IMG/VR virus record: IMGVR_UViG_3300026442_000101
Source: a virus
Taxonomy: Duplodnaviria; Caudoviricetes
DNA: 64,000 bases
Reading direction: 5' to 3' (one strand)
Shown here: piece by piece, positions 4,390 to 64,000 of the stretch
Layout of the letters: the number at the start of each line of letters is the position of its first letter
How positions within the stretch are numbered: the first letter of the stretch is position 1
Made by a program: the position numbers and the translations under genes
Notes under the pieces: generated by a model
The model's database searches: none
Seen by the model: only the letters and a program-made list of their open reading frames with translations
Told to the model about the DNA's origin: nothing

Positions 4390-7320
4390 ATGAGTTTGAC
4401 TGAAAACCTTGCGGCACTCAGTGCCGCGATGGACCGACTGTTTACCCTGGTGGGTACAGTCGCCACCGGTAAGCGTAAAACGGCCGGTACGGCAGACAAA
4501 ACGAAGCTCGTGGCTGGATTGACTAAAACCCAGCTGGCTTCCGCTGTCCGTAAAGCTGCCGACGACCATGCCGCGCTGCAAGGTAACGTGCACAACGACA
4601 CCTTCACGTCGGTAGGGATTCACTCCAAGGCTACGTTCGACACTCTTCTGCCGACCGTTATGCCAAACGGCGTCTTGCCGCTCTCGCGTTTTGGTACGCA
4701 GAACTATCTGCCGCCAGGCATCCAGGGTAGCTTCGAGGGCGGTACGACTGGTCTTCAATACACCGACACTGCCTGCATCATCGAAGATGACGGTACCGCT
4801 GTCTATCTGCGTAACGGTACGGACGGTGCCAGTCAAGGCGTCTTCTACGCATTCCTTGAGGGCGCTAGTTCTAAGGTTGGCGTACCTATCCGTACCGGTC
4901 GGCGCTATCAGCCGAGCTGGTTCCCAGCAGGCACTACCGCCCTCGCCGTCTTCAACTCCAGCCAGTCTGTCATCGTTGGCCAGTTGCAGGATGCTTCCGG
5001 AACTCCGGGCGATTACTTCATAGCTCTGACCAACGGAACCTACGACGCTACCAAGCACGTAGGCGGGATCATCCCCAAAGCAGTCGGTGACACTTACATC
5101 AAGGTAGGTGGTGAGGCATTCGTAGCGGGTAACACTGTCTACTTCTACAACCTCACCTTCTCCGGCAGCAGCATGACGCAGCCGTATGACATCACTGTTC
5201 ACACGCTTCCGCGCGCAACTCTGGCAGCAGCCGGCGGTGGTCAGGTTACGTTCACGCAAGTGACTGGGATCACTACCAAGGGCTTTGGCAACGTCAGCTA
5301 CGCCGCTCTCGATCGGATGCGTTTTTGCAGTAAGATCGTGAGTCAGGATGCCTCGGAAAACCCGATGGTGCGTCAAGTCGGTACGCGGTTCTCCTTCTTG
5401 CAGATCATGTACTACTACAGTGGTACGCCTGTATCTGCGATGGATGAGGCGACTGGTAAGATCCGCACCAAGCTCTATCATCAGAGCCGTATGGTGACCA
5501 CCAGCGGCGCGCCGTATAGCGGCACCGGGTTCAGCTTTGTATTCGATCCGGTTGCCAAGACCGTGACGCTCGACCCGTTCTACTTGTCCGCCGAGAACAC
5601 GGTGACCGACGACGTTCCAACGCCGACCTACGCGGGTCCTATCTTCGACGGCATCGTGCTGGACAAGCTGGCCTCTGTTGGTCCGTACAAGCTCAACTTT
5701 GCGTACGATGACTTCGGTAACGTATTCAAGTTCATCTTGACGAACCTCGTGGATAACCTAACGGTCCAGGTCGGTCGGGTGACCAACTTCACCAGCCGCT
5801 ATGCAGCATTGGAAGGTGGCGTCGCTGCCGTCGCATCACTCGGAGCTCTTGTCGTAAGGCCTTCGTTCGGTACGGCTATCGGTTCCGGGATCCACGGCGC
5901 TGTCATGTTGTCGGCGACTAAGATGTATCTGTTCGCAGACGGTGTGACAAAAGCCGGTACTTGGCGACGCGGCATGGTGAAGACCACTCTGGAGGGCGAT
6001 GGGCAGTATAACTACGCGTCCATCTACCGCGGCACGATCAAAGGTTACGAGCCGTCGCCCACTCGGGATTTCTTCACTGACCTTGGTTATACCGACGACG
6101 ACTATAAGGCTCCAGTCAATGAGGTAACGGCTACCGGGTCGTTCTTCACGCACACTCAGCGATTCATCGCTGCAAAGACTGGCGTATCTTCGGTTAACCG
6201 ATTGGTCGGCAGGGCGTCCATCACGGAAGACCTGAGTCTCGGTGCTCAAGTCAGTGTCACTGATGCGATCATGCAAGGCTTAGGCAATCAGATCGCTTCT
6301 AAGTTGGCTGCTCAGGGCGAACCAGCCACCACTCAGTGGATTGCTGAATTGGTGATCCCTGCGAGTAACGGCGTCCCGCCTTTCGTTGCGTATCTGGGGC
6401 TGTGCGACAACGGCAACAACTACGTGACCATCTGTCCGGTGACAGTGACTCGCGATGGCGTAGGTAACGTCACAGGGGTGTCGGTAGGTACTCCGCACAC
6501 GCCTAAGTACATCTACACCAATGGTACCGGTGTAGGGCTTGCCATGAACTCCAACGGTATCCTTTACGGCGGCCCGTGCACCATGTACGACATCGGCACT
6601 GATGTCTTCATCGGTATCTGTACGTCGGGCTACATGCAGGTGCCTGGTGGTTCTCCGCAGTCGGCGTTCTGCTTCCGCTACAACCGGCCGGCGCAGGCGT
6701 TCCAGCACCGCGACGATTACTCCCAGCGTACCACTAACGTGTATTCTGGCGGCACCGGGCGTCATTTCGTAGCGCACCCTTCGTTAGGGTTCGGGTTCTG
6801 CTGGAACACCCAGCTGGCATCGGGCTACTCTGACGAAACCACCAAGTTGAACTTCCAGCCGATCGGGACGACCGTGGCCGAATTCAACGCATGGACCGGC
6901 CAGTCGATTTCTCCTCAGGAGACTTGGACGTGCCTGGCGTCTCAAAAGGCTGCTGAAGGCTGGGTCGTGTATTTCTCCGAAGATACCCCTGTGGTCATCA
7001 ACGGGACCTACTACGTCCTTCCGGTAAGTAGCGTCGATCTGCGCACGATCATCCCTGATGCTTCTAACCGGACGTTCTACGTCTACGTCAGGATCGTCGG
7101 CGGTGCGGCTCAGTATGTCATTGCAACTACGACCACTGCTGAAAGCAACCTGAACATGCTGGTGGGTACGGTAACCACCAACGCCACGCAGATTGTATCC
7201 ATCGCTGCTGAGAAGGTCACCCGACTCGGCAACTTCCGAATCAGCGCTACGTCGAAAGGTTCGGCTATCCCGGTATCCACCGGCCTGCCGCGCAACGCCG
7301 ACAAACTCGCATGGAGTTGA
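4390..7320 (+). CDS. Long tail fibre/tip-like protein (cassette 1)
   Basis: 976 aa, G/T/S-rich beta-type composition; H..GNVH and YLPP.I.GSFEGG N-terminus and RLG.FRIS...GSAIPVSTGLP C-terminus shared with paralogs. Confidence 0.7.
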   Translation: MSLTENLAALSAAMDRLFTLVGTVATGKRKTAGTADKTKLVAGLTKTQLASAVRKAADDHAALQGNVHNDTFTSVGIHSKATFDTLLPTVMPNGVLPLSRFGTQNYLPPGIQGSFEGGTTGLQYTDTACIIEDDGTAVYLRNGTDGASQGVFYAFLEGASSKVGVPIRTGRRYQPSWFPAGTTALAVFNSSQSVIVGQLQDASGTPGDYFIALTNGTYDATKHVGGIIPKAVGDTYIKVGGEAFVAGNTVYFYNLTFSGSSMTQPYDITVHTLPRATLAAAGGGQVTFTQVTGITTKGFGNVSYAALDRMRFCSKIVSQDASENPMVRQVGTRFSFLQIMYYYSGTPVSAMDEATGKIRTKLYHQSRMVTTSGAPYSGTGFSFVFDPVAKTVTLDPFYLSAENTVTDDVPTPTYAGPIFDGIVLDKLASVGPYKLNFAYDDFGNVFKFILTNLVDNLTVQVGRVTNFTSRYAALEGGVAAVASLGALVVRPSFGTAIGSGIHGAVMLSATKMYLFADGVTKAGTWRRGMVKTTLEGDGQYNYASIYRGTIKGYEPSPTRDFFTDLGYTDDDYKAPVNEVTATGSFFTHTQRFIAAKTGVSSVNRLVGRASITEDLSLGAQVSVTDAIMQGLGNQIASKLAAQGEPATTQWIAELVIPASNGVPPFVAYLGLCDNGNNYVTICPVTVTRDGVGNVTGVSVGTPHTPKYIYTNGTGVGLAMNSNGILYGGPCTMYDIGTDVFIGICTSGYMQVPGGSPQSAFCFRYNRPAQAFQHRDDYSQRTTNVYSGGTGRHFVAHPSLGFGFCWNTQLASGYSDETTKLNFQPIGTTVAEFNAWTGQSISPQETWTCLASQKAAEGWVVYFSEDTPVVINGTYYVLPVSSVDLRTIIPDASNRTFYVYVRIVGGAAQYVIATTTTAESNLNMLVGTVTTNATQIVSIAAEKVTRLGNFRISATSKGSAIPVSTGLPRNADKLAWS

Positions 7321-8759: not shown

Positions 8760-9404
8760 ATGGCTGACACCATTTTCAAATACCCGCTGGACCTCCTCGG
8801 CACCAGCGCGACCAACAAGGTCATTGACGAAAGTCACACGATCGGGTCGGTCAAGGGGCGGATCTTCGTCGCCGACTACGGTCCATTCTTCGGGGGCTCG
8901 GTCATCCTCAAAGACGGCGTGAGTGGCCGTACGCTTGTTGCGAACACTGACTACACTCTGGTCCACCATTACCGTGAGGCGACTGCGCGCACCGGTCAGG
9001 CGATCTACACCGCTGTGCGGATCGTCAATCCGAACGTCAGCACCACCATCCTCATGACCTGCCAGTATGTCGGTGGTGAGTTCTCGTTCTCGACCTATGC
9101 GCTCAAGCAAGCCATCGAAGAGCTGATGAACGACGATCGTCCCGTGTATTGGGGCGACCTCATTGGCGTACCTGCCCAATTCGTACCAGCTCCTCACCTG
9201 CACAGCGCCTACGACCTCTACGGCATGAAGTACGTCGTGGAAGCACAGGTCGATGTGGCCAACGCGATTCGTGAAGGCGATGCTGCGTCTCGAGCTTTGC
9301 TGCTCAAACAGATTCAGGATAAATTCCTGTCGTTCGATTCGTTCGCCAAGCAATTGGCCGACTGCTTCGAATCTGGCGCTGTAGAGCTCCGATCGATCAT
9401 TTGA
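8760..9404 (+). CDS. Tail/baseplate adaptor-like protein (cassette 2, gene A)
   Basis: Start placed at ATG 8760 after GAGGT RBS; KYPLDLLGTSATNKVIDE..GPFF paralog of 3642..4373. Confidence 0.65.
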   Translation: MADTIFKYPLDLLGTSATNKVIDESHTIGSVKGRIFVADYGPFFGGSVILKDGVSGRTLVANTDYTLVHHYREATARTGQAIYTAVRIVNPNVSTTILMTCQYVGGEFSFSTYALKQAIEELMNDDRPVYWGDLIGVPAQFVPAPHLHSAYDLYGMKYVVEAQVDVANAIREGDAASRALLLKQIQDKFLSFDSFAKQLADCFESGAVELRSII

Positions 9405-9421
9405 TAAAGGGACAACTCAAC

Positions 9422-12376
9422 ATGTCGAAGTCCTCTAGCACTATCATTGCTGAGACTATCGGTGAAGTCGAAGATTCGATGACCGAATTCAAGGAAGGGC
9501 TCGAAGCCGCCTTGAAGAAGAAGGCAGAGAGTGCCGAATATGCTGAGACCGCTGATACGCTAGAGGGCAAGACTCCGGCCGAAGTGGAAGCACTGCTTCT
9601 GGCCGAAGTCACCAAGCACACCAGCGCCCTTGGTCAGAACGTCCACGGCCTCAATGCTGGGATGGTCGGCAGTTATAACAAGTCCGAGTATGATGCGAAG
9701 TTTGACCTCATGCTCGACACCGACAGCGGTATCCCTCTGGACTTCTACGGTGACCGTGAATTCCTTCCACCATCGGTGACCGGTTCTTTCGAATCCGGCA
9801 GTAACACCACGCCGTATAGCAACGTGGCGATGATGATGGAAGATAACGGTACCTTGATGATTCTCCGTCCCGGTACCGATGGCGACAGTGCGGGTGTGTA
9901 TTACTCGTACCTGCGTAACGCCATGACCGAGACCGACCTCGCCAAGAACCTCGTGATGTCTAACGTCGAGTACCGGCCGGCATACTTCCCAGATGGGATG
10001 CGTGCAAAGTGTATCTTGAAAGGTACGCAGGACATCATTACCGGCATCATGAAAGATGCGACCACTGGCGCGCACACCGGTTACTTCATCTCGTTGACCA
10101 ACAACACGATGGACCAAACCAAGCACACCGGTATCTTCGTCCCGAACGGGAATTTCCTCTCGGTGCGAGGACCTCTCCCTGGTCTGTACCACACCCCGTT
10201 CGGTTTCATCAAAGGTAACTACGTCTACATCCTTCACGACATCCATCAAGAGGGTAAGATCGGTTACCGTGTATGGCGTCTGAATAAGAACGAGCTGATT
10301 ACCGGTAACTTCACCAGCGCCACTCAGATCAAAGGTTGGACCATCAACCGGGGTCAGAACGGCGTTGTGACTCGCGACGATATCGTGATCTACGACGATG
10401 TTGTTAGCTCCACCATCAACACCGGCATTCCTTCCACCACAGTCCTGGCCACCAACGGCTCGACCATGGCGACAGCTCTGACTCGCGACAACGGCGAGAC
10501 AGGCATCATGGGCAGCTGGTACATGCAGTTCTACCCTAGCGACAACATCTTCTCGGTTGCCAGCGCCCAAGCCTACTTCTCGTTTGAGTTCAACGAGAAT
10601 AAGCAGATCGATGTGTCGAAATACCACAACGATCCGATTCGAATGGACTATTCGTCGGCTGGGTGGGCACTGCAAGCTTCGGCTGCAATGAACCAGAATA
10701 CCTACAATAGCCACCACCGCCAACAGAACTCGCAGTCTACTGACTCGATCTACGCTAACGTTTATAACCAGTTGTGGTTGTGGACAGTAGTTTCGTACAC
10801 GGCAGGTACGGGCAGTATGTACCTACACCGATTCCAGTACGATCCTTCGATCGATCCAGTCGCTGTTCTTGCAGGCGACGCTAACTGGACGGAGCACGGG
10901 TATGTGTCGCCGGTAGGGCGTTTCGGTAGCGCACTCACGGCTTCGATGAGGGCTGTGTCCAACGTGGGTGATGGTGTTGTTAACTGTCTGAACTTCGGCA
11001 GGCTTCCTGAGCCATACGGTGCTACGTCATACTACGTGCGGTGTGCGCTGATCGGCGAACCTACCTTCCAGTACTCGTCGGTAACTGGTAACTTTGCCTG
11101 GAAAGGTTTCGGTCCGACTGATCAGCGTTACGACCAGATCGCGCTGAACCAACCTGCAACGAACTGGCACATCCTTCTAAACGAAGGTTCGCCTGGAGCG
11201 TCTCGTACCTCTCAGGCAAGGTTCACCAGAGCTCAGCCAACCCTGACCACCAGAGCGGCTGTGGTCAATGCCGACATGTCGGTGTCGGGTTCCGTAACTG
11301 TACCGCAGGCAGTCATGGAAACGCTGGAAGCTCAGATCCTGACTAACCTGGCTAGCCGGGGGTACACTCCGTCCACCGATCCGATCGCGGGCAGTTACAG
11401 TAAGTACCACTTCGAACTGAACATCCCGCAGATCTACACCGACATGCCTCCGTTCGTAGTCGGTTCGATCATGTCAGGTAACGGCGCCAACCGCGCTATC
11501 CACATGTTCATCTATACGGTGACCATCAGCGGTAGCAGGCAGAACGTGACTGGTGCGTCTATCCAGCCGGGCACTGCGTTACTGATCCGTAACGAGGCCA
11601 CTGTCGGCAGCGCATTGGGTGTACTTGAAGCTCGGGACTGTGGTCAAACGGCGATTCGTCGAGTCAGCGGTGGGTTCATGATCGGCTTTGCCGATAGCGT
11701 CTCCTATCACGTCGTAGGTAACGGTGGGCGGGCAATGCTCGCACTTCGTTATTCGGGAGGCACTTGGGCGGTGAACGGAAACGTTTACTGGGACTATTGG
11801 AACGGTACCGCTCCAGCTGGTTGGGTTAACCTTCCTAGCCGCGGTCTGTACTACGTCCTCTCGTCTGAGTTCATCTACTCGGAAATCGACTGCGGTACGA
11901 AGATGATCGCAACGCTGTTCGCCGATAATTCGATGTCGACGTTAAACGTTAACGAGTTGCGAGCAAGGTCGGTAGACCCGGCTTACGGCTTCGTGATGAT
12001 GTCGCAACGAGTGGTGAGTGCATGGACGGTCTACTTCGCAGACGAAACTCCAGCGATGTTGGACGGCTACTACAGCCTGGTTCAACCGTTGAACTACGCG
12101 CTGAACCCAGCTACTGATGCTAACAAGACGTTCTACGTCTGGTTGGTTCGAAGCGGGGCTGCTCTAACCTACGCTGTGACGACCACTAACCAACCGCCAT
12201 CGTCACCGTCGCTGTACCTCGGCTACTTCACCACAACCAACACCGGTCTTAACCTCATCGACGTGCGTAAGCGCGTGGCTGTGGATGGGAAGATGTTGTC
12301 GCCAGATGCGCGTGGTTCCTCGATCCCGCTCACCTCCGGTACTCCGAACTCCTACGGCCGCCTCAACTGGAAATAA
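9422..12376 (+). CDS. Long tail fibre/tip-like protein (cassette 2)
   Basis: About 984 aa (start 9422 or 9401); FLPPSVTGSFESG and LS..ARGSSIPLTSGTP motifs shared with 4390..7320; central part divergent. Confidence 0.7.
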   Translation: MSKSSSTIIAETIGEVEDSMTEFKEGLEAALKKKAESAEYAETADTLEGKTPAEVEALLLAEVTKHTSALGQNVHGLNAGMVGSYNKSEYDAKFDLMLDTDSGIPLDFYGDREFLPPSVTGSFESGSNTTPYSNVAMMMEDNGTLMILRPGTDGDSAGVYYSYLRNAMTETDLAKNLVMSNVEYRPAYFPDGMRAKCILKGTQDIITGIMKDATTGAHTGYFISLTNNTMDQTKHTGIFVPNGNFLSVRGPLPGLYHTPFGFIKGNYVYILHDIHQEGKIGYRVWRLNKNELITGNFTSATQIKGWTINRGQNGVVTRDDIVIYDDVVSSTINTGIPSTTVLATNGSTMATALTRDNGETGIMGSWYMQFYPSDNIFSVASAQAYFSFEFNENKQIDVSKYHNDPIRMDYSSAGWALQASAAMNQNTYNSHHRQQNSQSTDSIYANVYNQLWLWTVVSYTAGTGSMYLHRFQYDPSIDPVAVLAGDANWTEHGYVSPVGRFGSALTASMRAVSNVGDGVVNCLNFGRLPEPYGATSYYVRCALIGEPTFQYSSVTGNFAWKGFGPTDQRYDQIALNQPATNWHILLNEGSPGASRTSQARFTRAQPTLTTRAAVVNADMSVSGSVTVPQAVMETLEAQILTNLASRGYTPSTDPIAGSYSKYHFELNIPQIYTDMPPFVVGSIMSGNGANRAIHMFIYTVTISGSRQNVTGASIQPGTALLIRNEATVGSALGVLEARDCGQTAIRRVSGGFMIGFADSVSYHVVGNGGRAMLALRYSGGTWAVNGNVYWDYWNGTAPAGWVNLPSRGLYYVLSSEFIYSEIDCGTKMIATLFADNSMSTLNVNELRARSVDPAYGFVMMSQRVVSAWTVYFADETPAMLDGYYSLVQPLNYALNPATDANKTFYVWLVRSGAALTYAVTTTNQPPSSPSLYLGYFTTTNTGLNLIDVRKRVAVDGKMLSPDARGSSIPLTSGTPNSYGRLNWK

Positions 12377-18714: not shown

Positions 18715-21546
18715 TTACAGACCTGGGAACGTCGGATCGTCGGCGGCGTCACCGCCTTCGTTACCTTCGGTACCACCAGTTTCGTCAGCAGGCTTAGGTT
18801 CTTCAACCTCTTCCTCTTCAGGCTCAACTGGCTGTTCAGTTTCTTCTACCGGAGGAGTTTCTTCCTCATTGGCGAGTTCCTCGTTGCCGAGTTCGTCTTC
18901 GGTATTCTCCTGATCACCCATGTCTGGGACAGGAGCTTCTGCATCGAAGTCAGGTTCAGCTTCCTCTTCAGGCTGACCAATTTCGTTCAGAGCATCCTTT
19001 GTCATCTGATCGGCTTTCAGAGCACGTTCCTGACGCTTACGGTTCTTGTAAGCATCCTGCGCCACGATTTCCATGTAGTCAGACAGACCTGCCAGAAGCG
19101 CGCTTACGTGAGTCTTCATCTCTTCGTTCAGATTCATCAGAGGACTTCCATCCTCAGTGTTGACGAAGATATCCAGATCACGGAACAGACCACGCTCTCG
19201 CATCCAACGACGCAGCTCATGACCCTTGAGGGACGCGATTACGGTTGGGATGGATTCGCGGATGGTGTCGTTCATGTAACCGTGGAAGTACTCTTCCTGC
19301 ACGTAAGCCGGCAAGATGGTATCGAGCACGTCGGAGTAGTTCTTGTACATCTCGATCTGCTTGGTCATGTTATCCGACTCAGGAGCCGGCAGCTTCACAG
19401 TCAAGGTATTCAGGAACTCTTCGAGGAACGCTTCCGGATCTTCCTTGAATTCATCAGGCAGATCTTTGGTGTTGTTCTCGATGATCTCCATCAGCTGTTC
19501 GACCAAAGGACCGCTGTTGTACGTGAAGATACGCACGTAGTCAGTGATCATCGGGTTGGCCAGGTTCTGGAGCACCATGACGCGCTTGAGGAGCATCAGG
19601 CTGTTGCGCACGATGGTAGTCGCGAACTCAGGCTGGTTAGCGCCGTCGATCATCTCAGGCGTCAGGCTGAAGACACGCACCAAGTCAGAACGCAGACTTT
19701 CCAGCAGATCGGTATCCACGGGGTTGTACGAACTTTCCCGTGGCGTGATAGAGGTCTTCACCTCAGGATAACGAGGGTTACCCGACACGTTCACCGATAG
19801 CGCAGACATCTGCAGCTGTTCAGCCAAGCCCTGAATGCTGACGATACCAGTAGGGAACTGGTGATACGCCAGAGCCATCGCTTCGTTAGCCAGGAAGCTC
19901 ACTGTACCGACAGGATCGCCATCGTCCTCAGGGAGTTCGATGTTGATGTCCTTACCAGGAATGGCGTTCTTGGTAGCGCCGATGATGGAAGCTACGAGCA
20001 GGTTGGCGCGCATTGCTGCGAGCGACTTGGCATCTTCCAGGATGGATTTACCAATACCGTACTCGTTATAGTCGAAGGCCATGTAGACCATCAGCTCAGC
20101 AGGCACGTAAAGCATGGTGGTCTGCTGGTTCTTCATCGAACGCGAGAAGAGCAGGCGGTCAACGTGCTCGCTCTTGCTGATCTCCACATCGCCGCCTTGC
20201 AGGCCGGTCTTGATGCGGGCAATGATGTCGTGGTCGATGAACTCACCGTGCAGCTGGACCAGACGATCGATCAACTGGTTCGACGCATTTTGAATGCCGC
20301 CGTTCAGCGTTTCGTTCGCCATGTTCAGCAGTTCACCAGACACCTGGCTAGCCGAACCTACCTGACTATCGCCACCCACTGTCCCACGACGAATATCTTC
20401 GTAGAAATTCAAGCGACGGCTAAATGATAGCGGGAATCCATTTGCGTCGAGGATGATAATGTAGCCGATGTGGTTCGTCTCATCGCCTGGCACGCAGACC
20501 GGCATTACGGCCTCGATCGGGAGATGGTAAACCAGCGGATGACCTACGGTATCAGCGCCTGCTTGCTTGAGGGTCGGTACGACTTCCAGGCGGCTGCGTT
20601 TGACGCCCTGAGGAGCTCTGAAGAAACGGGAATAGATGTTGGAGGTATCGACCTCACCTTTCTTCCCGCCAGACTTCTTGTCGAGGACCGTATCGCCCTT
20701 GTCAGCCATCTCCTGACGTTCACGCGTTTGACGCTGCTTACGCCGAGACTCAAGCGAAGATTCGCCGTAGGCTGCACGCATCAGACGGGCACGCTTCTGT
20801 TCCTGCACCGCAGGCATACGCAGCGCAGCCAGGTTGTCAGTAACCTTGAACGGCAGAGTGACGGACTTCTGACCCTTCGACGCTTTGATGGTATGATAGT
20901 CCGCCATCTTGTCGCGGGTAATCGCCCTTCTGGAGGACTCCAGGCTGGCGTATGCGCCGTTTTTGGCAGTGGGGATGCGCAGGCCCAAGACACCCTTAGG
21001 TTTGAACCAATCGCCTTCCCATTCGCCACCGTAGCTCGCCACCGATTCCATCGAAGCATTGGAGTCAGTACCATTGATCATACGGTCGATGGACGCTTCA
21101 GGCAAGATCATGATAGCGTGTGCGCCGGACCAGACGAGCGCGTTGTCAATCCAATCGGGCACCTTCTTGTCGAGGTTCTGTTCTTCGACGTGGAACTTAT
21201 ACAGACCATCGACGAGCTGTGAGGTAAGCGCCGTGTCCGGCCCCGGCATGCCGTTGGCCATCACAAGCGACGTCGAAGAGAGGTCACCAGGCGCGACGAC
21301 CGCACTGACCAGGATGTCCTTGGCAAGCTTAAGGTCTGGCTGAATCTGGAAGATGTTGCGGATGTCAGTGGCGTCACGCAGAGTGCGACGTACCACACTG
21401 GCAATCGCAGTCATGTCGACGTTTTTCAGCTTACCATTACTGGGATCCGTTCTGTCGGTCACCAGTCGTCCAAGCAGGCGTTCGTCAGCCTCACTCAGAT
21501 TCCTGAACTGCGCAATCTTTTGCTGTGCGCGGTCATCGTTATCCAT
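18715..21546 (-). CDS. Portal protein (phiKZ gp129-like)
   Basis: 943 aa; size, acidic C-tail, GHPLVYHLPIEAVMPV..PG and YGIGKSILE motifs, synteny near capsid genes; ASMES/ASLES protease-type sites. Confidence 0.75.
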   Translation of the reverse strand: MDNDDRAQQKIAQFRNLSEADERLLGRLVTDRTDPSNGKLKNVDMTAIASVVRRTLRDATDIRNIFQIQPDLKLAKDILVSAVVAPGDLSSTSLVMANGMPGPDTALTSQLVDGLYKFHVEEQNLDKKVPDWIDNALVWSGAHAIMILPEASIDRMINGTDSNASMESVASYGGEWEGDWFKPKGVLGLRIPTAKNGAYASLESSRRAITRDKMADYHTIKASKGQKSVTLPFKVTDNLAALRMPAVQEQKRARLMRAAYGESSLESRRKQRQTRERQEMADKGDTVLDKKSGGKKGEVDTSNIYSRFFRAPQGVKRSRLEVVPTLKQAGADTVGHPLVYHLPIEAVMPVCVPGDETNHIGYIIILDANGFPLSFSRRLNFYEDIRRGTVGGDSQVGSASQVSGELLNMANETLNGGIQNASNQLIDRLVQLHGEFIDHDIIARIKTGLQGGDVEISKSEHVDRLLFSRSMKNQQTTMLYVPAELMVYMAFDYNEYGIGKSILEDAKSLAAMRANLLVASIIGATKNAIPGKDINIELPEDDGDPVGTVSFLANEAMALAYHQFPTGIVSIQGLAEQLQMSALSVNVSGNPRYPEVKTSITPRESSYNPVDTDLLESLRSDLVRVFSLTPEMIDGANQPEFATTIVRNSLMLLKRVMVLQNLANPMITDYVRIFTYNSGPLVEQLMEIIENNTKDLPDEFKEDPEAFLEEFLNTLTVKLPAPESDNMTKQIEMYKNYSDVLDTILPAYVQEEYFHGYMNDTIRESIPTVIASLKGHELRRWMRERGLFRDLDIFVNTEDGSPLMNLNEEMKTHVSALLAGLSDYMEIVAQDAYKNRKRQERALKADQMTKDALNEIGQPEEEAEPDFDAEAPVPDMGDQENTEDELGNEELANEEETPPVEETEQPVEPEEEEVEEPKPADETGGTEGNEGGDAADDPTFPGL

Positions 21547-28662: not shown

Positions 28663-29307
28663 TCAGTCCTCCACATGGACGTTAGTCGAACGGAAGTACT
28701 TCTCGTACAGCTCACCAACCTTTTCGTTGATGCCGTTCGTATTGGCTTCTTTGGCCGCTGGCGTGACGATGAGGATTTCGTCATACTTGAACGGAATATC
28801 ACCCGCTTCGAGCACAGTTCCTTGAGGAAGCTCAGCATCCACCTTAACCCACGGTACCAACTCACCACGCTTGTTGTAGAAGACGTCCAGTTCGAACTTG
28901 AAGCGGATATCTTTATCTTCCAGCGTGGAGTCGACGAAGTAACGTGTCTTGATCAGCCCCTGGTCAGCGAGCAGTTTGAACTGGTTGAAACGAGTGACCG
29001 TAGTCAGCAGGTTATCTTCCAGCTTACCTTCCGCACCTTGGCTGGTCTTACAGGTTTCTTCGTACGAGGTGTTACCGTCAACAGTATCGGTCCTACGAAC
29101 GCGTATGTTGCCGCTGGAAGCGTTTTTGTCAGTCTTGGGGATGTAGATACCCCATTGCTCCTGACCCTCGTGTCCGGTCGCCTTTGCCTTGATCTCGTCG
29201 ATGTCGTAACCGAGCAGATAGACTTCGTTCTCGTATTCGATGCCGGAGGATTCAAAACTTTCCTCACTCTCACCGTCAACGAATGCCAGTTTTTCAATAA
29301 GAGACAT
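28663..29307 (-). CDS. CYTH-superfamily (triphosphate tunnel) enzyme
   Basis: EYENEVY, IRVRR, TCK, KTRYF, FELDVF, VKVDAEL motif order; start at ATG 29307 after GAGGTG. Confidence 0.75.
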   Translation of the reverse strand: MSLIEKLAFVDGESEESFESSGIEYENEVYLLGYDIDEIKAKATGHEGQEQWGIYIPKTDKNASSGNIRVRRTDTVDGNTSYEETCKTSQGAEGKLEDNLLTTVTRFNQFKLLADQGLIKTRYFVDSTLEDKDIRFKFELDVFYNKRGELVPWVKVDAELPQGTVLEAGDIPFKYDEILIVTPAAKEANTNGINEKVGELYEKYFRSTNVHVED

Positions 29308-29462
29308 GTCCACCTCGAAAAATAGACAAAAAAAATACGCCGCCATGACAGGCGACGACCGTGAGCACTGCTGAGGTGCCCACGGATTCGTCCTACAGTA
29401 TTAGTCAGAGGTTTATGGAAGGGTTGTCGACGTCCTAGCTGATGAGGCAGGACGTCTGGAGG

Positions 29463-34365: not shown

Positions 34366-36618
34366 TTAAGGAGTTACGGTGCCGCCGCCGGAGTCGTCGC
34401 CGCCACCGGTCCCACCAGTACCACCGGTACCGCCAGTGCCTGCGTCGGTGCCACCGTCGCCAGCTTCAGCTTCGGTGAGTTTGACACGAAAAGGCAGGGT
34501 CTGCTCCAGGAGCTCAGCAACGCCTTCCACGTTCACCTTGACGATGATCGGGCAGAAGTTGTAGTGCTGGAAGCGCGGCTGCACTACAGCCTCGTTCACT
34601 GGACGGCCATCACGGGTAACCGAGATGGTGGAGACCAGGGTCGGAGTCAGCAGCATTGCGCCGGAGCTCAGAGCGTCGATGCCTTCGCCATCGCGAACGA
34701 TGACCATGTACATGACGTCGCGCAGACGGGCGTCCACGTCCGATTCCAGCTGGTACTTCAGACCAGCACCCAGGGTGCGGCTGTCGCCCGAGATGGTCAT
34801 GAAGCGCTCGATCTGCTTCGAGGTCACCAGACCGAAGCGGAACGGTTGAGCAACTTCACCGCCGTCCATGTAGCGGCAGGCGTTCTCGTAGTTGGTCTTC
34901 TGCAGGATGTCGAAGGCCACCGAACGCAGGGTGTTGACCAGGACCGCAACGCCGTTCTCGACGTTGGCGACGGTTTCCTGCGACTGGGCAGTTTCCATCA
35001 GGTCGACGGTCAGTTCCTGAACGTACGGGTTGACGAGGTAACGGCCGATACCTTCGATAGGCAGGGCGTTGATCTCGAAGTCGCCAGCGGTCATCTCGCC
35101 GCGCAGGCCACCGGTCAGACGCATCAGACGCTCGTGGTAACCGATCAGGGTACCCACAGCTTCGTTGTTGATGTAGCTGGAGACCGCGAAGGTCAGCCAG
35201 TCCATCACGGTCTGGTCACGGTTTTCGCTCAGTGGGTACGGAACGAAGAACGGCGAACGCTGACGGGTCAGCAGACGCTCGGTCACGTTACGGACGTTGA
35301 GCATCAGGCCCAGGTGACGGTGGTTGGTGTTGGTCAGACGAGCGTCCGGCCACCAGCCGACTACCTTCAGTTGTGCCAGGCCATCAACGATGGTCTTGCC
35401 GACGCCGGTGCCCAGCGGGATGCGCTCGCCAGCTTCGTTCTCGATGTACATCACTTCCATGGAAGTGGTGGACACGTCGATGGTGCCGCGCTCAACATCG
35501 CTGTTGCCGTTCAGACGGGTCTTCAGACGGACGCTGTAGCCACCATCTTTGATGGTGGTGAACACCGCACCAGTCAGAGCTTCGCCCTTGTAGTTGGTGG
35601 TGTTCTTGTCGATCTTCAGGGTGGTCAGAACGAAGTTCAGCGACAGTTGACGGCCGCCTTGTTCTGGCAGCTTCACGAAGCGGCTGAATGGCAGACCCTT
35701 GGTGTCGAACACGATGGTGTCGGCGCCCAGGCCCAGGTACACGTCGGCAACGCCGATGTTACGGTCCAGTGCTTCGGTGTAGTCGGCTTGACCAACGCGG
35801 CTGATCGAGTCGGACTGACCCAGGCCGAAGATGTTGACGGTCTTGTTGACCAGCAGAGCCGAGGTCTTGACGGTACGACGACCGGAGATGTAGTCGAACG
35901 GCTCGACAACGGATTCGGCGACGAAGTTGTCTTTCGACACGTCGGCGTAGCCCGGGATCAGCTGGGTGCTGTTGTCGTGCAGTACGGTGTAGTCGATCGC
36001 CGAGTCCATGACGCGGCGCAGGCCGAAGTCGGATTCGGAACCATCCAGCTCGTGGCGCAGGGTGTTCTGCACGTAGAGGTTCGGGATGGTGATGTCGATA
36101 CCGCCTTGCTCAGGAGTCAGTGGAACGGTGCGGTACACCATTTCCATGGCCGGGCCCTGGCGCGCGATCTTGTAGTTCAGACCGATGGAGATCGGCAGGT
36201 GATCGATCAGCGACTGGTTGTCGAAGGATTCCTTCGAGTATTCGCTGTCGAATTCCATGCCGTCGGCGTGAGCGTAACGCACACCAGCGCCCAGCTGCTT
36301 GCTTTCGGTCGAGATCTGCAGGTTCAGCAGGTCGGAAGGACGCTGGGCGAACGAGGCGATGAACGAGGCTGCTGCCATACCGGCCGGGTTCTTGTAACCG
36401 GCTTCGGTGTTGCCTGGCTCGAGGACGCTTTTCAGGTTCTCGGCAACGCTCGACAGATCGACGCGGCTTTCGAAGGAACCTTCTTGCAGCCACTTGATGG
36501 CGTCAGCGCTCTCGGTGGAATAACCACCGGAGTGAATGTTTTCCTGGATCTGGGTAGCCAGCACGCCAGAGCCGGCGCCGAAGTTGCCGCCGGGCTTGTT
36601 GAGTTTGATGACACTCAT
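34366..36618 (-). CDS. Major capsid protein (phiKZ gp120-like)
   Basis: 750 aa, extreme codon bias, N-terminal propeptide with STES/SFES/SKES sites, VQPRFQHYNFCPII C-terminal motif, next to DnaB. Confidence 0.9.
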   Translation of the reverse strand: MSVIKLNKPGGNFGAGSGVLATQIQENIHSGGYSTESADAIKWLQEGSFESRVDLSSVAENLKSVLEPGNTEAGYKNPAGMAAASFIASFAQRPSDLLNLQISTESKQLGAGVRYAHADGMEFDSEYSKESFDNQSLIDHLPISIGLNYKIARQGPAMEMVYRTVPLTPEQGGIDITIPNLYVQNTLRHELDGSESDFGLRRVMDSAIDYTVLHDNSTQLIPGYADVSKDNFVAESVVEPFDYISGRRTVKTSALLVNKTVNIFGLGQSDSISRVGQADYTEALDRNIGVADVYLGLGADTIVFDTKGLPFSRFVKLPEQGGRQLSLNFVLTTLKIDKNTTNYKGEALTGAVFTTIKDGGYSVRLKTRLNGNSDVERGTIDVSTTSMEVMYIENEAGERIPLGTGVGKTIVDGLAQLKVVGWWPDARLTNTNHRHLGLMLNVRNVTERLLTRQRSPFFVPYPLSENRDQTVMDWLTFAVSSYINNEAVGTLIGYHERLMRLTGGLRGEMTAGDFEINALPIEGIGRYLVNPYVQELTVDLMETAQSQETVANVENGVAVLVNTLRSVAFDILQKTNYENACRYMDGGEVAQPFRFGLVTSKQIERFMTISGDSRTLGAGLKYQLESDVDARLRDVMYMVIVRDGEGIDALSSGAMLLTPTLVSTISVTRDGRPVNEAVVQPRFQHYNFCPIIVKVNVEGVAELLEQTLPFRVKLTEAEAGDGGTDAGTGGTGGTGGTGGGDDSGGGTVTP

Positions 36619-60870: not shown

Positions 60871-60991
60871 TGCGTTATCCTTTCGGATGTTGTTGTTCAT
60901 GACTACAATGTAGTATTCAAATTCGTTTGACTGCGCGATACCAATTTTATGTCAACTCTTTCTTTCACCACAGATAAATTCGGAGTCATCT

Positions 60992-63900
60992 ATGTTTGCA
61001 GGAATCAAAAGAAGGCTGGGACTGGTGGAAGTCACCACCACCCCGACCTATATCGTGGTGGAAGGATTCAGTACCTTATCGTTCACCAAGGACATGTATC
61101 GCGTATGGGGTAACAACACCATCGCCAAGTACATGTTCTCTCAAGTACGGTCGAGCGAATTCAAGCTGCGACACTTCTTCGGCCTCGACTTCCTCTACAT
61201 CTGCCGTCGCCTCTACGACGAGAAATACACCAGCATGCCAAAGCGTATCCTGGGTAAGATCATCGAGGAGCTCGAAGAGAAGACCTGGCTCGGCCAAGTC
61301 GGTAAGGACATCACTCCGATCACTGACATCAGTGTAGCCGACAAGACCGTAAGCTTCACCCTGAAGCCATTCCAGCGTGAGTTCGTGGAAGTGTTCGGGA
61401 AGATGGTCCCAGCCTACCGTCTGAAGGGCTACATGCTCGATGCAGGTGCAGGTACCGGTAAGACCGTCACAGACCTCGTTATCGCAGCGTCCCTGCATGC
61501 CAACAAGGTAATCATCGTCACGCCAAAGAACGCCGCAGAGCGCGTCTGGGAAGCTACCATCAAGGACATCGTCCTGAAGAAGCAACCCTACTGGCTGTCG
61601 GTGGGTAACAAGCCGCCTAGCGTCAACGACTACTACTTCATCTGCCACTACGAGTCGCTCGAGCAGATGCTGGCGTTTGTCAAGGCAAACCCACAGGCGT
61701 TCAAGAACACTTTCGTCATCCTTGACGAGTCGCACAACTTCAACCGCATCGCATCGGACCGTACCCAGTTCTTCATCGAGCTGTGCAACCTCCCTCAGGT
61801 TACCTACAACCTCTGGGCTTCTGGTACCCCGATCCAGGCGCTGGGCACTGAGTGCATCCCGTTCCTGAAGTGTGTTGACCCGCTGTTTGACAGCTACTGC
61901 GAAGAAGCCTTCCGTAAGATCTACGGTCGTGACGCTAAGCGCGCTAACGACATCCTGCGTAACCGCATCGGTCACCTCAAGTATCACGTACCTCAACAGG
62001 ACGTGGTCCATACCGAGGTTATCGTTGAGACCGTCAAAGTCTCGATGCCTAACGCGAAGGATTACACCCTCGAGAACATCGGTAAGCTGCTGCGTGAGTT
62101 CATCGACAAGCGTCGTGAGCATTACGCCAAACACCGACTGGACTATGTCAAGTTCTACGAGGATGGCCTGAAGGTCTTCAAGCAGACGCTCAAGACTGAC
62201 CAGCAGAAGCGTCAGTTCGAAGCGTACCAGTCTGCATTCAAAGTCATCGCCGGTCGTTTTGATCCGCAGACGATGAAGGCTGAAGCACAGCTCTGTAACC
62301 AGTACGAGCTCAAGACCATCATCCCGGTCCTGAACAATCCGCTGAAGAACAACTTCAAAGGTGCTCGTTCGGTTATCAAGTACGTCGACCTCAAGATCAT
62401 GGGCGAGGCACTCGGCACCATCGTTGGCGGTATGCGCTCGAAGTGTCACGTCGAGATGGTCAAGCACATCGACTTCAACAAGTACATCGACGACGCTGAG
62501 AAGAAGACGCTGATCTTCACCAGCTACGTCGAGGTCCTCGAGTCGGTGGCTGATATCGTCGACAGCAACGGCTATAAGTCTGGGCGCGTCTACGGCGCTA
62601 CCAACAAAGACTTGGCATCGATCGTGGGTCAGTTCTACAAAGACGAAGACCTCAATCCGCTGTGCGCTACCTACCAGTCACTCTCGACTGCGGTACCTCT
62701 CACTGCGGCCAACACGATCCTCATGATCAACCAGCCGTTCCGTGACGCTATCCGTACACAGACCATCGCTCGTGCAAACCGTCTTGGTCAGGACAAGAAC
62801 GTCTACGTGTTCGACTTCCTGCTCGACACTGGCGACATGCCGAACATCTCGACGCGCAGTAATGACATCCTGCTCTGGAGTCAGAACCAAGTGTCGCAGA
62901 TCCTTGGCGTGAATAACGTCGACGTGGATACGCTGGCATTGGAATCCGCGTCCGTTGATGAGTACTCGACTGAGGTGTTCGATCTGCTTGTCGACGCTGG
63001 TGACCTGCTCGCACAAATCCTCGGTATTGACAAGTTCCTTGACCGCATCGGGGCTCGTACGAACTTGACTAACCAAGGCCGGACAGGTTGGGGTAACGAA
63101 GCTTACTCGAAAGAGAGTGTGGGCTTTGATGTCCCGCATTACCTGTACCACGGCTCGATGTATAAGCAGGGCGAACTCATGCCTGGCTTCCAGCGCTCCG
63201 GTGAGCTGGTTCGTTGGGATGGCGTGGAGTCGAACGAGTGGCTGTACGCAACCACCGATCGTGAAGATGCGATCATGTTGGGGATTGGCTCGGCTCTTGA
63301 GAAAGAGTTCCGTGTCGATCGATATTCGTACGATGCCAAGACTCGTAAGCTGGTCATTACCTCGCCGGACAACATCACTCCCGCTGACGTCAGAAAGGCC
63401 CAGGTCTTCCTGTACACCATCAAGGGTGAGAACTCTGACGAGTGGCTGCCGAACTTCAATCAGCAGAACGGCATCGAGAACGAGTATAAGACCCAGAACA
63501 CTATCGATGAATCGATCATCAAGACCGAGCAAGTCGATATCAGTAAGGTGCTCGCCAACTACCGTCTCGAGATCGTCAAGTCGAAAGCGGAATACTCGAC
63601 CGAAAGCTTCTCGCAGGTGATGAGTAACCTGAAGAAGATGATCTTCGGCGATAATCGCGAAGACAAGAAGAAACACCTACCGACTAAACCTTGGATGAGC
63701 ACCAAGGAAATTAAAGCGCTGCTTGAATACATCGATGATTACTTCGGCAACGATTCCTGGCTGTCTAAACAACAGTTCAACGTCGACGTCCCAAGTAACG
63801 GCATCATCCAGGCGTTGTCGTACGACGGTAAGTTCACGACCACCAATCCGATGTCGGCTATCAATGGTCATCTCAATGACTACAAGACGAAGGCTGCCAA

Positions 63901-64000
63901 GTTTGCGTCCCAACTCAAAGAGATGGACAGTGCGGTGCAGCGGGTTTACGGCAAGTATGAGAAACCACTCATCGCCGCTGCCAAGGCTGATCAGCACGAC
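60992..64000 (+). CDS. SNF2/SF2 helicase fused to ART-like and further domains (runs off right edge)
   Basis: Not in ORF track; manually open for 1003 codons. GAGTGKT, ILDESHN, ASGTP, TIARANRLGQ, then YLYHGS...LYATT...NEY. Confidence 0.9.
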   Translation, partial: MFAGIKRRLGLVEVTTTPTYIVVEGFSTLSFTKDMYRVWGNNTIAKYMFSQVRSSEFKLRHFFGLDFLYICRRLYDEKYTSMPKRILGKIIEELEEKTWLGQVGKDITPITDISVADKTVSFTLKPFQREFVEVFGKMVPAYRLKGYMLDAGAGTGKTVTDLVIAASLHANKVIIVTPKNAAERVWEATIKDIVLKKQPYWLSVGNKPPSVNDYYFICHYESLEQMLAFVKANPQAFKNTFVILDESHNFNRIASDRTQFFIELCNLPQVTYNLWASGTPIQALGTECIPFLKCVDPLFDSYCEEAFRKIYGRDAKRANDILRNRIGHLKYHVPQQDVVHTEVIVETVKVSMPNAKDYTLENIGKLLREFIDKRREHYAKHRLDYVKFYEDGLKVFKQTLKTDQQKRQFEAYQSAFKVIAGRFDPQTMKAEAQLCNQYELKTIIPVLNNPLKNNFKGARSVIKYVDLKIMGEALGTIVGGMRSKCHVEMVKHIDFNKYIDDAEKKTLIFTSYVEVLESVADIVDSNGYKSGRVYGATNKDLASIVGQFYKDEDLNPLCATYQSLSTAVPLTAANTILMINQPFRDAIRTQTIARANRLGQDKNVYVFDFLLDTGDMPNISTRSNDILLWSQNQVSQILGVNNVDVDTLALESASVDEYSTEVFDLLVDAGDLLAQILGIDKFLDRIGARTNLTNQGRTGWGNEAYSKESVGFDVPHYLYHGSMYKQGELMPGFQRSGELVRWDGVESNEWLYATTDREDAIMLGIGSALEKEFRVDRYSYDAKTRKLVITSPDNITPADVRKAQVFLYTIKGENSDEWLPNFNQQNGIENEYKTQNTIDESIIKTEQVDISKVLANYRLEIVKSKAEYSTESFSQVMSNLKKMIFGDNREDKKKHLPTKPWMSTKEIKALLEYIDDYFGNDSWLSKQQFNVDVPSNGIIQALSYDGKFTTTNPMSAINGHLNDYKTKAAKFASQLKEMDSAVQRVYGKYEKPLIAAAKADQHD

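Follow-up and report, generated by a model that had tools for sequence, protein, structure and literature searches.

The 64,000 nucleotides of viral DNA analysed here, from IMG/VR record IMGVR_UViG_3300026442_000101 (the window), end in an open reading frame (ORF) in which an SNF2-type helicase, a domain with the predicted fold of ADP-ribosyltransferases (ARTs) and a head-protein-like module follow one another in a single chain, with prohead-protease motifs at the domain borders. The DNA comes from an uncultured soil jumbo phage of the nucleus-forming type that phiKZ represents. Proteins encoded in the window have matches in phiKZ-like families (major head protein, virion structural proteins, DnaB-like helicase and polymerase), and none of 50,697 phage records holds near-identical DNA. 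On balance we lean slightly towards reading the ORF as a virion polyprotein that the prohead protease would cut into its helicase, ART and head-protein parts, with the ART then injected in the manner of Alt of phage T4. In the course of events that we infer, from cleavage at these sites to ejection, catalysis and target, the whole chain would be built into the prohead via the helicase and/or the head-protein module, and the protease, which cuts after S/A/G-x-E, would cleave at L-A-L-E↓S, S-K-E↓S and S-T-E↓S (arrows mark predicted cuts). The three modules would then lie free inside the capsid and be expelled with the DNA, and the ART would use NAD+ on a host or nucleic-acid target as soon as infection begins, like T4 Alt. 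By analogy with its relatives the polyprotein is likely to be packaged, and from the linker motifs we rather expect it to be cut; that the ART is also ejected and acts on a host or nucleic-acid target is a conceivable continuation, drawn by analogy, that we hold somewhat less likely than not. Our own analysis, described below, shows how the chain is built, the fold, the conservation of the triad and of the places where the motifs stand, and how relatives rearrange the modules; that the helicase and gp303 are packaged and processed, and where the protease cuts, is taken from papers on relatives.

From an ATG at 60992, frame +1 of the plus strand runs through 1003 codons without a stop and reaches the window end at 64000 still open at its 3' end, in agreement with the single frame of more than 1000 codons described by a first-pass annotation made from the sequence alone. 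Full-length relatives have 1151 (P0009), 1144 (P0157), 1155 (P0159) and 1284 (P0158) residues, and the complete polyprotein probably has about 1150-1160, judging from their lengths, with its last ~150 residues beyond the window; we expect these to end near W-M-D-R-S-I-K and a phiKZ_IP gene to come next. The 3.1-kb stretch that encodes it is identical, and free of indels, in contigs from four separately assembled soil runs, so the long frame is not an assembly artefact. This identity, together with diverged fused orthologues in JGI, ENA and Logan data, rules out an assembly or frameshift error as the source of the fusion, and we are nearly certain that the fusion and the architecture are real. 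The stretch is present in 21 soil metatranscriptome runs; since it lies there on contigs of 40-83 kb, which may be carried-over DNA, we claim no expression. An exact 49-mer from the window end had no match in viral_contigs or metagenome_contigs.

Residues 1-652 are, by sequence comparison, the orthologue of phiKZ gp203 and RAY gp131, that is, a gp203-type virion helicase, the packaged SNF2-type helicase that all nucleus-forming (phiKZ-like) phages have. The helicase matches phrog_62 (1.5e-83) and the Pfam families ResIII (1.2e-07) and Helicase_C (1.9e-05), both above the cut-off. phiKZ gp203 aligns with the ORF by tblastn at 34% identity over 654 residues (E 8e-119), and this homology runs from residue 1 to nucleotide 62947, where it stops exactly at L-A-L-E↓S. 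The first-pass annotation had placed the end of an SNF2 helicase near 62900, followed by ALES at 62936, and both placements hold. The N-terminal domain has no Pfam match, and its tblastn alignments to RAY, Noxifer, DT01 and phiKZ begin at residue 1-6. Helicase homologues occur in 209 phage records, all of them jumbo phages, all below 60% identity and none covering more than about 71% of the query; the RAY orthologue gp131 is a 707-residue stand-alone protein annotated as 'virion-associated SWI/SNF family helicase'. phiKZ gp203 is found in the virion, is proteolytically processed and co-pellets with DNA (PMC12676376), and a green fluorescent protein fusion of RAY gp131 localises with capsids (10.1101/2023.02.24.529968). 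The idea of a packaged protein, raised in the first-pass annotation, thus finds support in two orthologues that are virion or capsid proteins.

The domain that follows the helicase very probably has, on the evidence of its structural model, an ART fold. It matches phrog_13483, a family annotated as of unknown function (6.8e-49), and phiKZ gp282 (153 residues) is homologous to residues 714-866 (45% identity, E 1e-37) and carries the same H-Y-E residues. A word-index search recovered only 4 homologues and an exhaustive search was needed; this profile-free search yielded 162 representatives after clustering at 50%, most of them stand-alone proteins of 150-175 residues. For modelling and conservation we aligned 120 homologues with 25-53% identity to the query domain. 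The AlphaFold2 model from this alignment has a predicted local distance difference test score (pLDDT) of 91.8 and a predicted TM score of 0.84. Across the 120 sequences His720 and Tyr752 never vary and Glu831 reaches at least 90% conservation, and the three residues lie on model strands 18-23, 52-55 and 132-135, the strands on which ARTs carry their triad. We take the words L-Y-H-G-S, W-L-Y-A-T and N-E-Y to resemble those of PARP1, diphtheria toxin and exotoxin A.

A structure search with residues ~710-865, proposed in the first-pass annotation, was run with the AlphaFold2 model, and the best named neighbours in four libraries were ADP-ribosyltransferases. A wide scan of the PDB (VIA) placed first the NAD lobe of KptA/Tpt1 bound to DNA or ADP-ribose (ADPR) (Z 9.1, root-mean-square deviation 2.1 Å over 84 residues), followed by Scabin (Z 7.2), the Rhs toxin TreX (7.0), pertussis S1 (6.9) and Arr (6.8), and further down by heat-labile enterotoxin, CARDS toxin, DarT1 (Z 5.6), MbcT, diphtheria toxin and PARP1; most rows with Z of at least 5 were ART-superfamily chains. 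Nearly all of the top 50 Foldseek matches in the PDB were ARTs, Tpt1/KptA and toxin ARTs first, at E ~0.02 and TM 0.33. Among AFDB clusters the matches were DUF3990 and unnamed proteins (E 1e-5), in the Atlas the DUF6886, Arr-ms and Pertussis_S1 clusters, and in BFVD phage Arr and DarT (DarT Z 5.0). The first-pass annotation had likened the domain to the H-Y-E triad enzymes of the diphtheria-toxin/PARP type. The triad and the ART assignment are borne out by the fold libraries and by conservation, but among solved structures the domain comes closest to KptA/Tpt1, Scabin, pertussis S1 and Arr; similarly, the motif YLYHGS that it had put at 63149 is present, although that position is the codon of His720 and not the start of the motif. 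Pfam at E values up to 10 gave no ART family for the domain or for any of the 120 members, NCBIfam gave none for the domain, and searches of PDB sequences by phmmer and by profile gave no relevant match. Since no curated ART sequence family matches, we regard the domain as belonging to a new family of this fold and not to a named one; it is an H-Y-E-type ART-fold family absent from curated libraries, and it includes phiKZ gp282 (phrog_13483). Conservation of the triad suggests that the domain is probably an active NAD-using enzyme.

The third domain has about 285 residues in full-length relatives and is homologous to the C-terminal half of phiKZ gp303, a 'structural head protein' (tblastn of gp303 on the window, E 4e-09; third domain of P0009 against gp303, E 2e-11) that is reported as processed. 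In Pseudomonas phage DT01 a gene of 371 codons directly downstream of the helicase encodes a protein homologous to it end to end (E 1e-24); RAY gp130, whose gene lies downstream of the RAY helicase, was considered as a further homologue and rejected, as it is not homologous. The AlphaFold2 model of the domain (pLDDT 87.7) matched only jumbo-phage proteins in BFVD, several of them named virion structural or internal head protein, and in the top Atlas cluster (TM 0.53) 19% of members carry PF12699 (phiKZ_IP). The structural resemblance to PF12699 internal head proteins is only moderate, the third domains of P0009, P0007 and P0012 have no PF12699 sequence match, and solved structures gave generic helical matches only, all with Z below 7. 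Because of the homology to gp303 and to the DT01 protein, and because the structural neighbours are virion and head proteins of jumbo phages, we conclude that the third domain is a head or ejection-protein module and not a recognisable enzyme. The expectation of separate ejected enzymes, as the first-pass annotation had it, fails for this gp303-related, internal-head-protein-like part of the chain.

What joins the three modules is the motif of the prohead protease. The phiKZ enzyme cuts after S/A/G-x-E, which a proteome-wide study refined to LSxE (PMC10449902), and that of SPN3US cuts after A-x-E with Ser preferred at P1' (PMC10052503). The motifs ALES, STE, SKES and STES, and the words WLYATT and NEY, are all where the first-pass annotation had read them, and its observation that S/A-x-E motifs fall at the domain borders extends to diverged relatives. 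Site 1, at the helicase end, reads L-[AST]-[LM]-E in nine aligned relatives (40-57% identity), with L and E invariant in 9/9; it matches the LSxE consensus (PMC10449902) and aligns with E-S-L-E-S at 650-654 of phiKZ gp203, where the homology ends. Site 2, between the ART domain and the third domain, is [SA]-x-E-[SG] at the same alignment column in all six continuing relatives, and also in P0157-P0159; in the equivalent place the separate DT01 protein has S-Q-E↓S and phiKZ gp303 has S-N-E↓G. Linker 1 cannot be aligned among relatives and is nevertheless always rich in [SA]-x-E-[SGA], a motif that is 12-fold denser in linkers than in domains over 12 related proteins (Fisher p 3e-13, which is not a strict probability as the sequences are related). 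Both sites flanking the ART domain lie in low-confidence, flexible ends of the AlphaFold2 model, with pLDDT ~67 at residues 700-709 and ~54 at site 2.

The same motif clusters in other proteins of the window. S-x-E-S occurs 16 times in the 19,931 residues encoded by its ORFs, and 11 of the 16 copies lie in four proteins: four at the N-terminus of the capsid protein, three in a 943-residue portal-like protein, two in a 227-residue protein and two in the polyprotein, where they flank the ART domain. In the major head protein (34366-36618, minus strand) the four copies read YSTES, GSFES, ISTES and YSKES, and none lies beyond residue 131 (YSKES at 127-131). YSTES and YSKES are the only 5-mers that the head protein has in common with the polyprotein; the match between linker sites and capsid propeptide noted in the first-pass annotation is therefore present, although sharing at least two 5-mers has a shuffle P of 0.11 and is weak evidence alone. 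No homologue of gp175, the phiKZ prohead protease, was found in the 64-kb window (tblastn, E 1e-3).

Relatives in which the domains are encoded as separate genes do exist, as the first-pass annotation had suggested checking, and they include phiKZ (gp203, gp282 and gp303), DT01 and several split relatives. DT01 has its helicase and gp303-like genes side by side and its ART gene elsewhere. P0008, P0013 and P0014 consist of helicase and ART only, all ending at the same alignment column, and the full triple fusion is found in the window ORF, P0009, P0157 and P0159; at least five independent full-length fusions are known, at 40-57% identity. P0025 and P0029 have an extra module between helicase and ART, and in P0012 the third domain is duplicated. 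The metagenomic protein P0037 (839 residues) has the reverse order, an N-terminal ART, an A-T-E↓S linker and then a gp203-type helicase, which points to more than one fusion event between ART and helicase. P0158, also metagenomic, continues beyond a G-S-S-E↓S-H-E↓S linker into a fourth module at its C-terminus (residues 1150-1284). This module contains the words Y-L-Y-H-G-T, W-L-T-P-S and N-E-Y-A-Y, its sole Pfam match is ART-PolyVal (PF18760) at a non-significant E of 0.1, and it may be a second, different ART cargo. In three relatives a GIY-YIG homing-endonuclease gene on the opposite strand splits the polyprotein gene about 10 residues before site 1, and the split ART proteins start with leaders of 10-14 residues ending in L-[SA]-[LM]-E↓A, which resemble the short capsid-targeting peptides described for T4 internal proteins (PMC5694885). 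In four relatives a phiKZ_IP (PF12699) gene lies 3' of the polyprotein gene.

Several observations weigh against a cleaved and injected polyprotein. All fused relatives are uncultured, and for the fused proteins cleavage, packaging and ejection are predictions. [SAG]-x-E is a common word, with 15 occurrences in the polyprotein ORF, and only position and conservation single out the three sites. The substrate cleavages mapped in SPN3US all take off N-terminal propeptides (PMC10052503), so freeing large folded modules would be an unusual use of the protease; the cleavage site of phiKZ gp203 was not located in the papers searched. The fold matches of the middle domain are moderate, with the Foldseek values given above (PDB E ~0.02, TM 0.33), a single Z above 8 and no ART sequence-profile match. 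phiKZ gp282 differs from the polyprotein domain in having neither leader nor protease motif and begins directly at the ART core, and PHIKZ282 is not mentioned in the accessible parts of the supplementary files of the phiKZ proteomics paper (PMC10449902), parts in which PHIKZ203 and PHIKZ303 appear in construct, blot-image and protein lists only. As far as those parts go, the absence of a leader from gp282 and of PHIKZ282 from the files indicates that the family is not intrinsically a virion family. No paper mentioning both phiKZ and gp282 was found in a literature search.

The polyprotein might be packaged and remain uncut, its ART-fold and head-protein modules being permanent C-terminal appendages of the helicase that serve, for example, to anchor it to the inner body or to DNA. 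SPN3US has 42 uncleaved head proteins beside those whose mapped cuts remove N-terminal propeptides (PMC10052503), and, as gp203 co-pellets with DNA (PMC12676376), a tethered enzyme beside the DNA is conceivable; repeated fusion in both orders could likewise mean that the activities must stay together. We consider this unlikely: both border motifs are conserved amid diverging linkers, the motif is 12-fold enriched there, the gene tolerates splitting at site 1 with the downstream half keeping a short leader that ends in the motif, and phiKZ gp203 and gp303 are reported to be processed and carry the motif at homologous positions.

Other alternatives concern what the ART-fold domain does. It could act on nucleic acid and not on a host protein, ADP-ribosylating ends or bases of DNA or RNA in the manner of KptA/Tpt1 or DarT; its partner would be the DNA-bound helicase, and its substrate either the injected genome or the DNA or RNA of the host. 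Its best structural neighbour is indeed the KptA NAD lobe bound to DNA or ADPR (Z 9.1), DarT1 and DarT are among the neighbours (Z 5.6 and 5.0), and fusions in either order join it to a DNA translocase, the phiKZ orthologue of which is pelleted together with phage DNA (PMC12676376). Such an activity seems to us quite improbable, as the R-H-R-R tetrad and the N-terminal lobe of Tpt1 are absent, no Arg is among the invariant or near-invariant residues of the family, and protein-targeting toxin ARTs score nearly as well (Z 6.3-7.2); fold similarity does not in any case give the substrate. That the domain is a catalytically dead or repurposed ART fold (an NAD(+)/ADPR sensor, an NADase or a structural spacer) and no ADP-ribosylating effector is less probable still. 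No Pfam or NCBIfam ART profile matches, and several ART-fold proteins among the structural matches (MbcT and RES toxins, for example) break down NAD+ instead of transferring ADP-ribose; yet an invariant H and Y and a near-invariant E over 120 sequences at 25-53% identity speak for a maintained active site. We also count against a dead fold the words H-G-S, L-Y-A and E-Y, which we take to be motifs of the active H-Y-E enzymes PARP1, diphtheria toxin and exotoxin A.

Features of the polyprotein ORF and of the genes that split it in relatives. Residue numbers refer to the polyprotein; nucleotide positions refer to the window, except for the GIY-YIG genes, which are given on the relatives' own sequences.
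Feature	Residues	Nucleotides	Strand	Basis or remark
Polyprotein ORF	1-1003	60992..64000	+	1003 codons, cut by window end; Shine-Dalgarno-like GGAG 10 nt upstream
N-terminal domain	1-117	60992..61342	+	common to all gp203-type virion helicases
SF2/SNF2-type helicase core	118-640	61343..62911	+	Pfam, phrog_62, phiKZ gp203 match
Walker A GTGKT	154-158	61451-61465	+	motif
DESH	245-248	61724-61735	+	motif
Border site 1, L-A-L-E↓S	648-652	62933..62947	+	predicted prohead-protease site, helicase end
ALES	649-652	62936 (start)	+	motif
Linker 1	653-713	62948..63130	+	two further motif copies
STE↓V	659-662	62966-62977	+	linker 1 motif
SKE↓S	706-709	63107-63118	+	linker 1 motif
ART-fold domain	714-866	63131..63589	+	phrog_13483, AlphaFold2, fold comparison
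His720	720	63149-63151	+	predicted triad residue, in YLYHGS (717-722)
Tyr752	752	63245-63247	+	predicted triad residue, in WLYATT (750-755)
Glu831	831	63482-63484	+	predicted triad residue, in NEYKT (830-834)
Border site 2, S-T-E↓S	869-872	63596..63607	+	between ART domain and third domain
Third domain	872-1003	63605..64000	+	132 residues seen, ~150 missing; gp303-like, internal-head-protein-like
GIY-YIG gene, L004		5186-5986	opposite	between helicase and ART genes
GIY-YIG gene, L012		4283-4900	opposite	between helicase and ART genes
GIY-YIG gene, L013		395-1138	opposite	between helicase and ART genes

A scan for promoters and terminators upstream of the ORF found nothing. The string T-T-T-T-A-T-G stands at 60946-60952, about 40 nt 5' of the ORF start (TATG at 60948-60951). 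TATG is the core of phiKZ late promoters, which would suit a gene for a virion protein, but four matching letters do not count as evidence. For a 204-residue protein neighbouring the polyprotein no record was found. The 943-residue virion structural protein (18715-21546, minus strand; phrog_3004) has S-M-E-S, S-L-E-S and S-L-E-S at residues 165, 201 and 264 (residues 165-267), a pattern that would fit the long cleaved propeptide described for giant-phage portal proteins and makes it a candidate portal. The 227-residue protein (28663-29346, minus strand; phrog_14791) has overlapping S-E-E-S and S-F-E-S at residues 27-33 near an acidic N-terminus and may be a small head protein whose leader is cut off. 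The major head protein ends (34369-34461, minus strand) in a tail of ~30 residues, nearly all of them Gly, Thr or Asp, with repeated G-G-T, which is unusual for a phiKZ-type capsid protein. Two paralogues of 976 and 991 residues (4390-7320 and 9401-12376, both plus strand) belong to phrog_3573, a family annotated as of unknown function, and their C-terminal parts match a virion structural protein family.

The proposal bears on how phiKZ-like phages protect their DNA and start expressing it before the phage nucleus is in place; few of the many head proteins that they inject have an assigned activity. If the polyprotein is cleaved and injected as we propose, its ADP-ribosyltransferase would be the first of these injected proteins for which a host-modifying activity is predicted. 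The ART family, which counts 162 or more diverged members and is covered by no database model, would be a new one, and the architecture suggests a prohead protease that unpacks a multi-enzyme polyprotein in the capsid, beyond trimming propeptides. Such a cargo-loading principle could be exploited for packaging foreign proteins, and the natural variants (split, reversed and extended) are ready-made controls for experiments. More tentatively, as a reading less likely than not, we suggest that nucleus-forming jumbo phages of this clade inject an unrecognised H-Y-E ART as a helicase-polyprotein passenger freed by the prohead protease, that the linkers may be a general route for variable effector cargo, as in P0158, and that the ART would do its work in the opening minutes of infection, ahead of the phage nucleus, with a host factor of defence or transcription, or the ends of nucleic acids, as its target. 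Packaged ARTs (T4 Alt) and polyvalent proteins combining SNF2 and ART domains (PMC5512222) are already known, and jumbo phages of all groups carry ARTs (PMC7824862). Our literature search found no paper on the H-Y-E ART family (phrog_13483/gp282), on fusion of an ART to a virion helicase and a head-protein module in phiKZ-like phages, or on prohead-protease motifs as inter-domain linkers.

Each module has a recognisable counterpart, and the arrangement sets the polyprotein apart. phiKZ gp203 and RAY gp131 are orthologous to residues 1-652 (34-38% identity, E 1e-118 to 1e-143) and have S-L-E↓S at the homologous position, but are stand-alone proteins of ~700 residues with a short acidic tail after the motif and neither an ART nor a gp303-like module. 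The third domain resembles phiKZ gp303 and the internal head (IP) or ejection proteins of giant phages, through the homologous C-terminal half of gp303 and through structural neighbours that are jumbo-phage virion or internal head proteins; unlike them it is fused behind an enzyme and not behind its own propeptide, and it has no PF12699 sequence match. The ART fold is common to KptA/Tpt1, Arr, DarT and diphtheria toxin/PARP, and in Arr, DarT, diphtheria toxin and PARP, too, strand 1 carries a His, strand 2 an aromatic residue and strand 5 an acidic one. In Arr this acidic residue is Asp instead of Glu. The phage domain has no detectable sequence-profile similarity to any of these, is smaller than the catalytic domains of PARP and diphtheria toxin, and is without the tetrad and N-lobe of Tpt1.

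Two known systems come closest to the proposed mechanism. The polyvalent proteins (Iyer et al. 2017, PMC5512222) are also multi-domain, combine a SWI2/SNF2 ATPase with an ART, and are predicted to be delivered with the DNA and processed into effectors. Their ARTs, however, are of the H-Y-D type (Tox-ART-HYD2, Pfam ART-PolyVal) and their hub is a zincin-like metallopeptidase within the protein, whereas the polyprotein has no peptidase domain (Pfam gave neither a PF18760 nor a peptidase match for the ORF), its triad is H-Y-E, and its linkers carry the motif of a separate prohead protease; phiKZ is not mentioned in that work, and polyvalent proteins are not described there in phiKZ-like phages. 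T4 Alt is packaged, trimmed after Glu by the prohead protease, injected with the DNA and modifies host RNA polymerase (PMC5512222, PMC5694885). The predicted logic is the same, a late-made ART carried in the head and trimmed after Glu. Alt, however, has an R-S-E triad, a short N-terminal targeting peptide, a stand-alone gene product and no sequence relationship to the phage domain, which has H-Y-E and sits in the middle of a chain of 1150 residues, between a helicase and a head-protein module, from which two internal cuts would be needed to free it.

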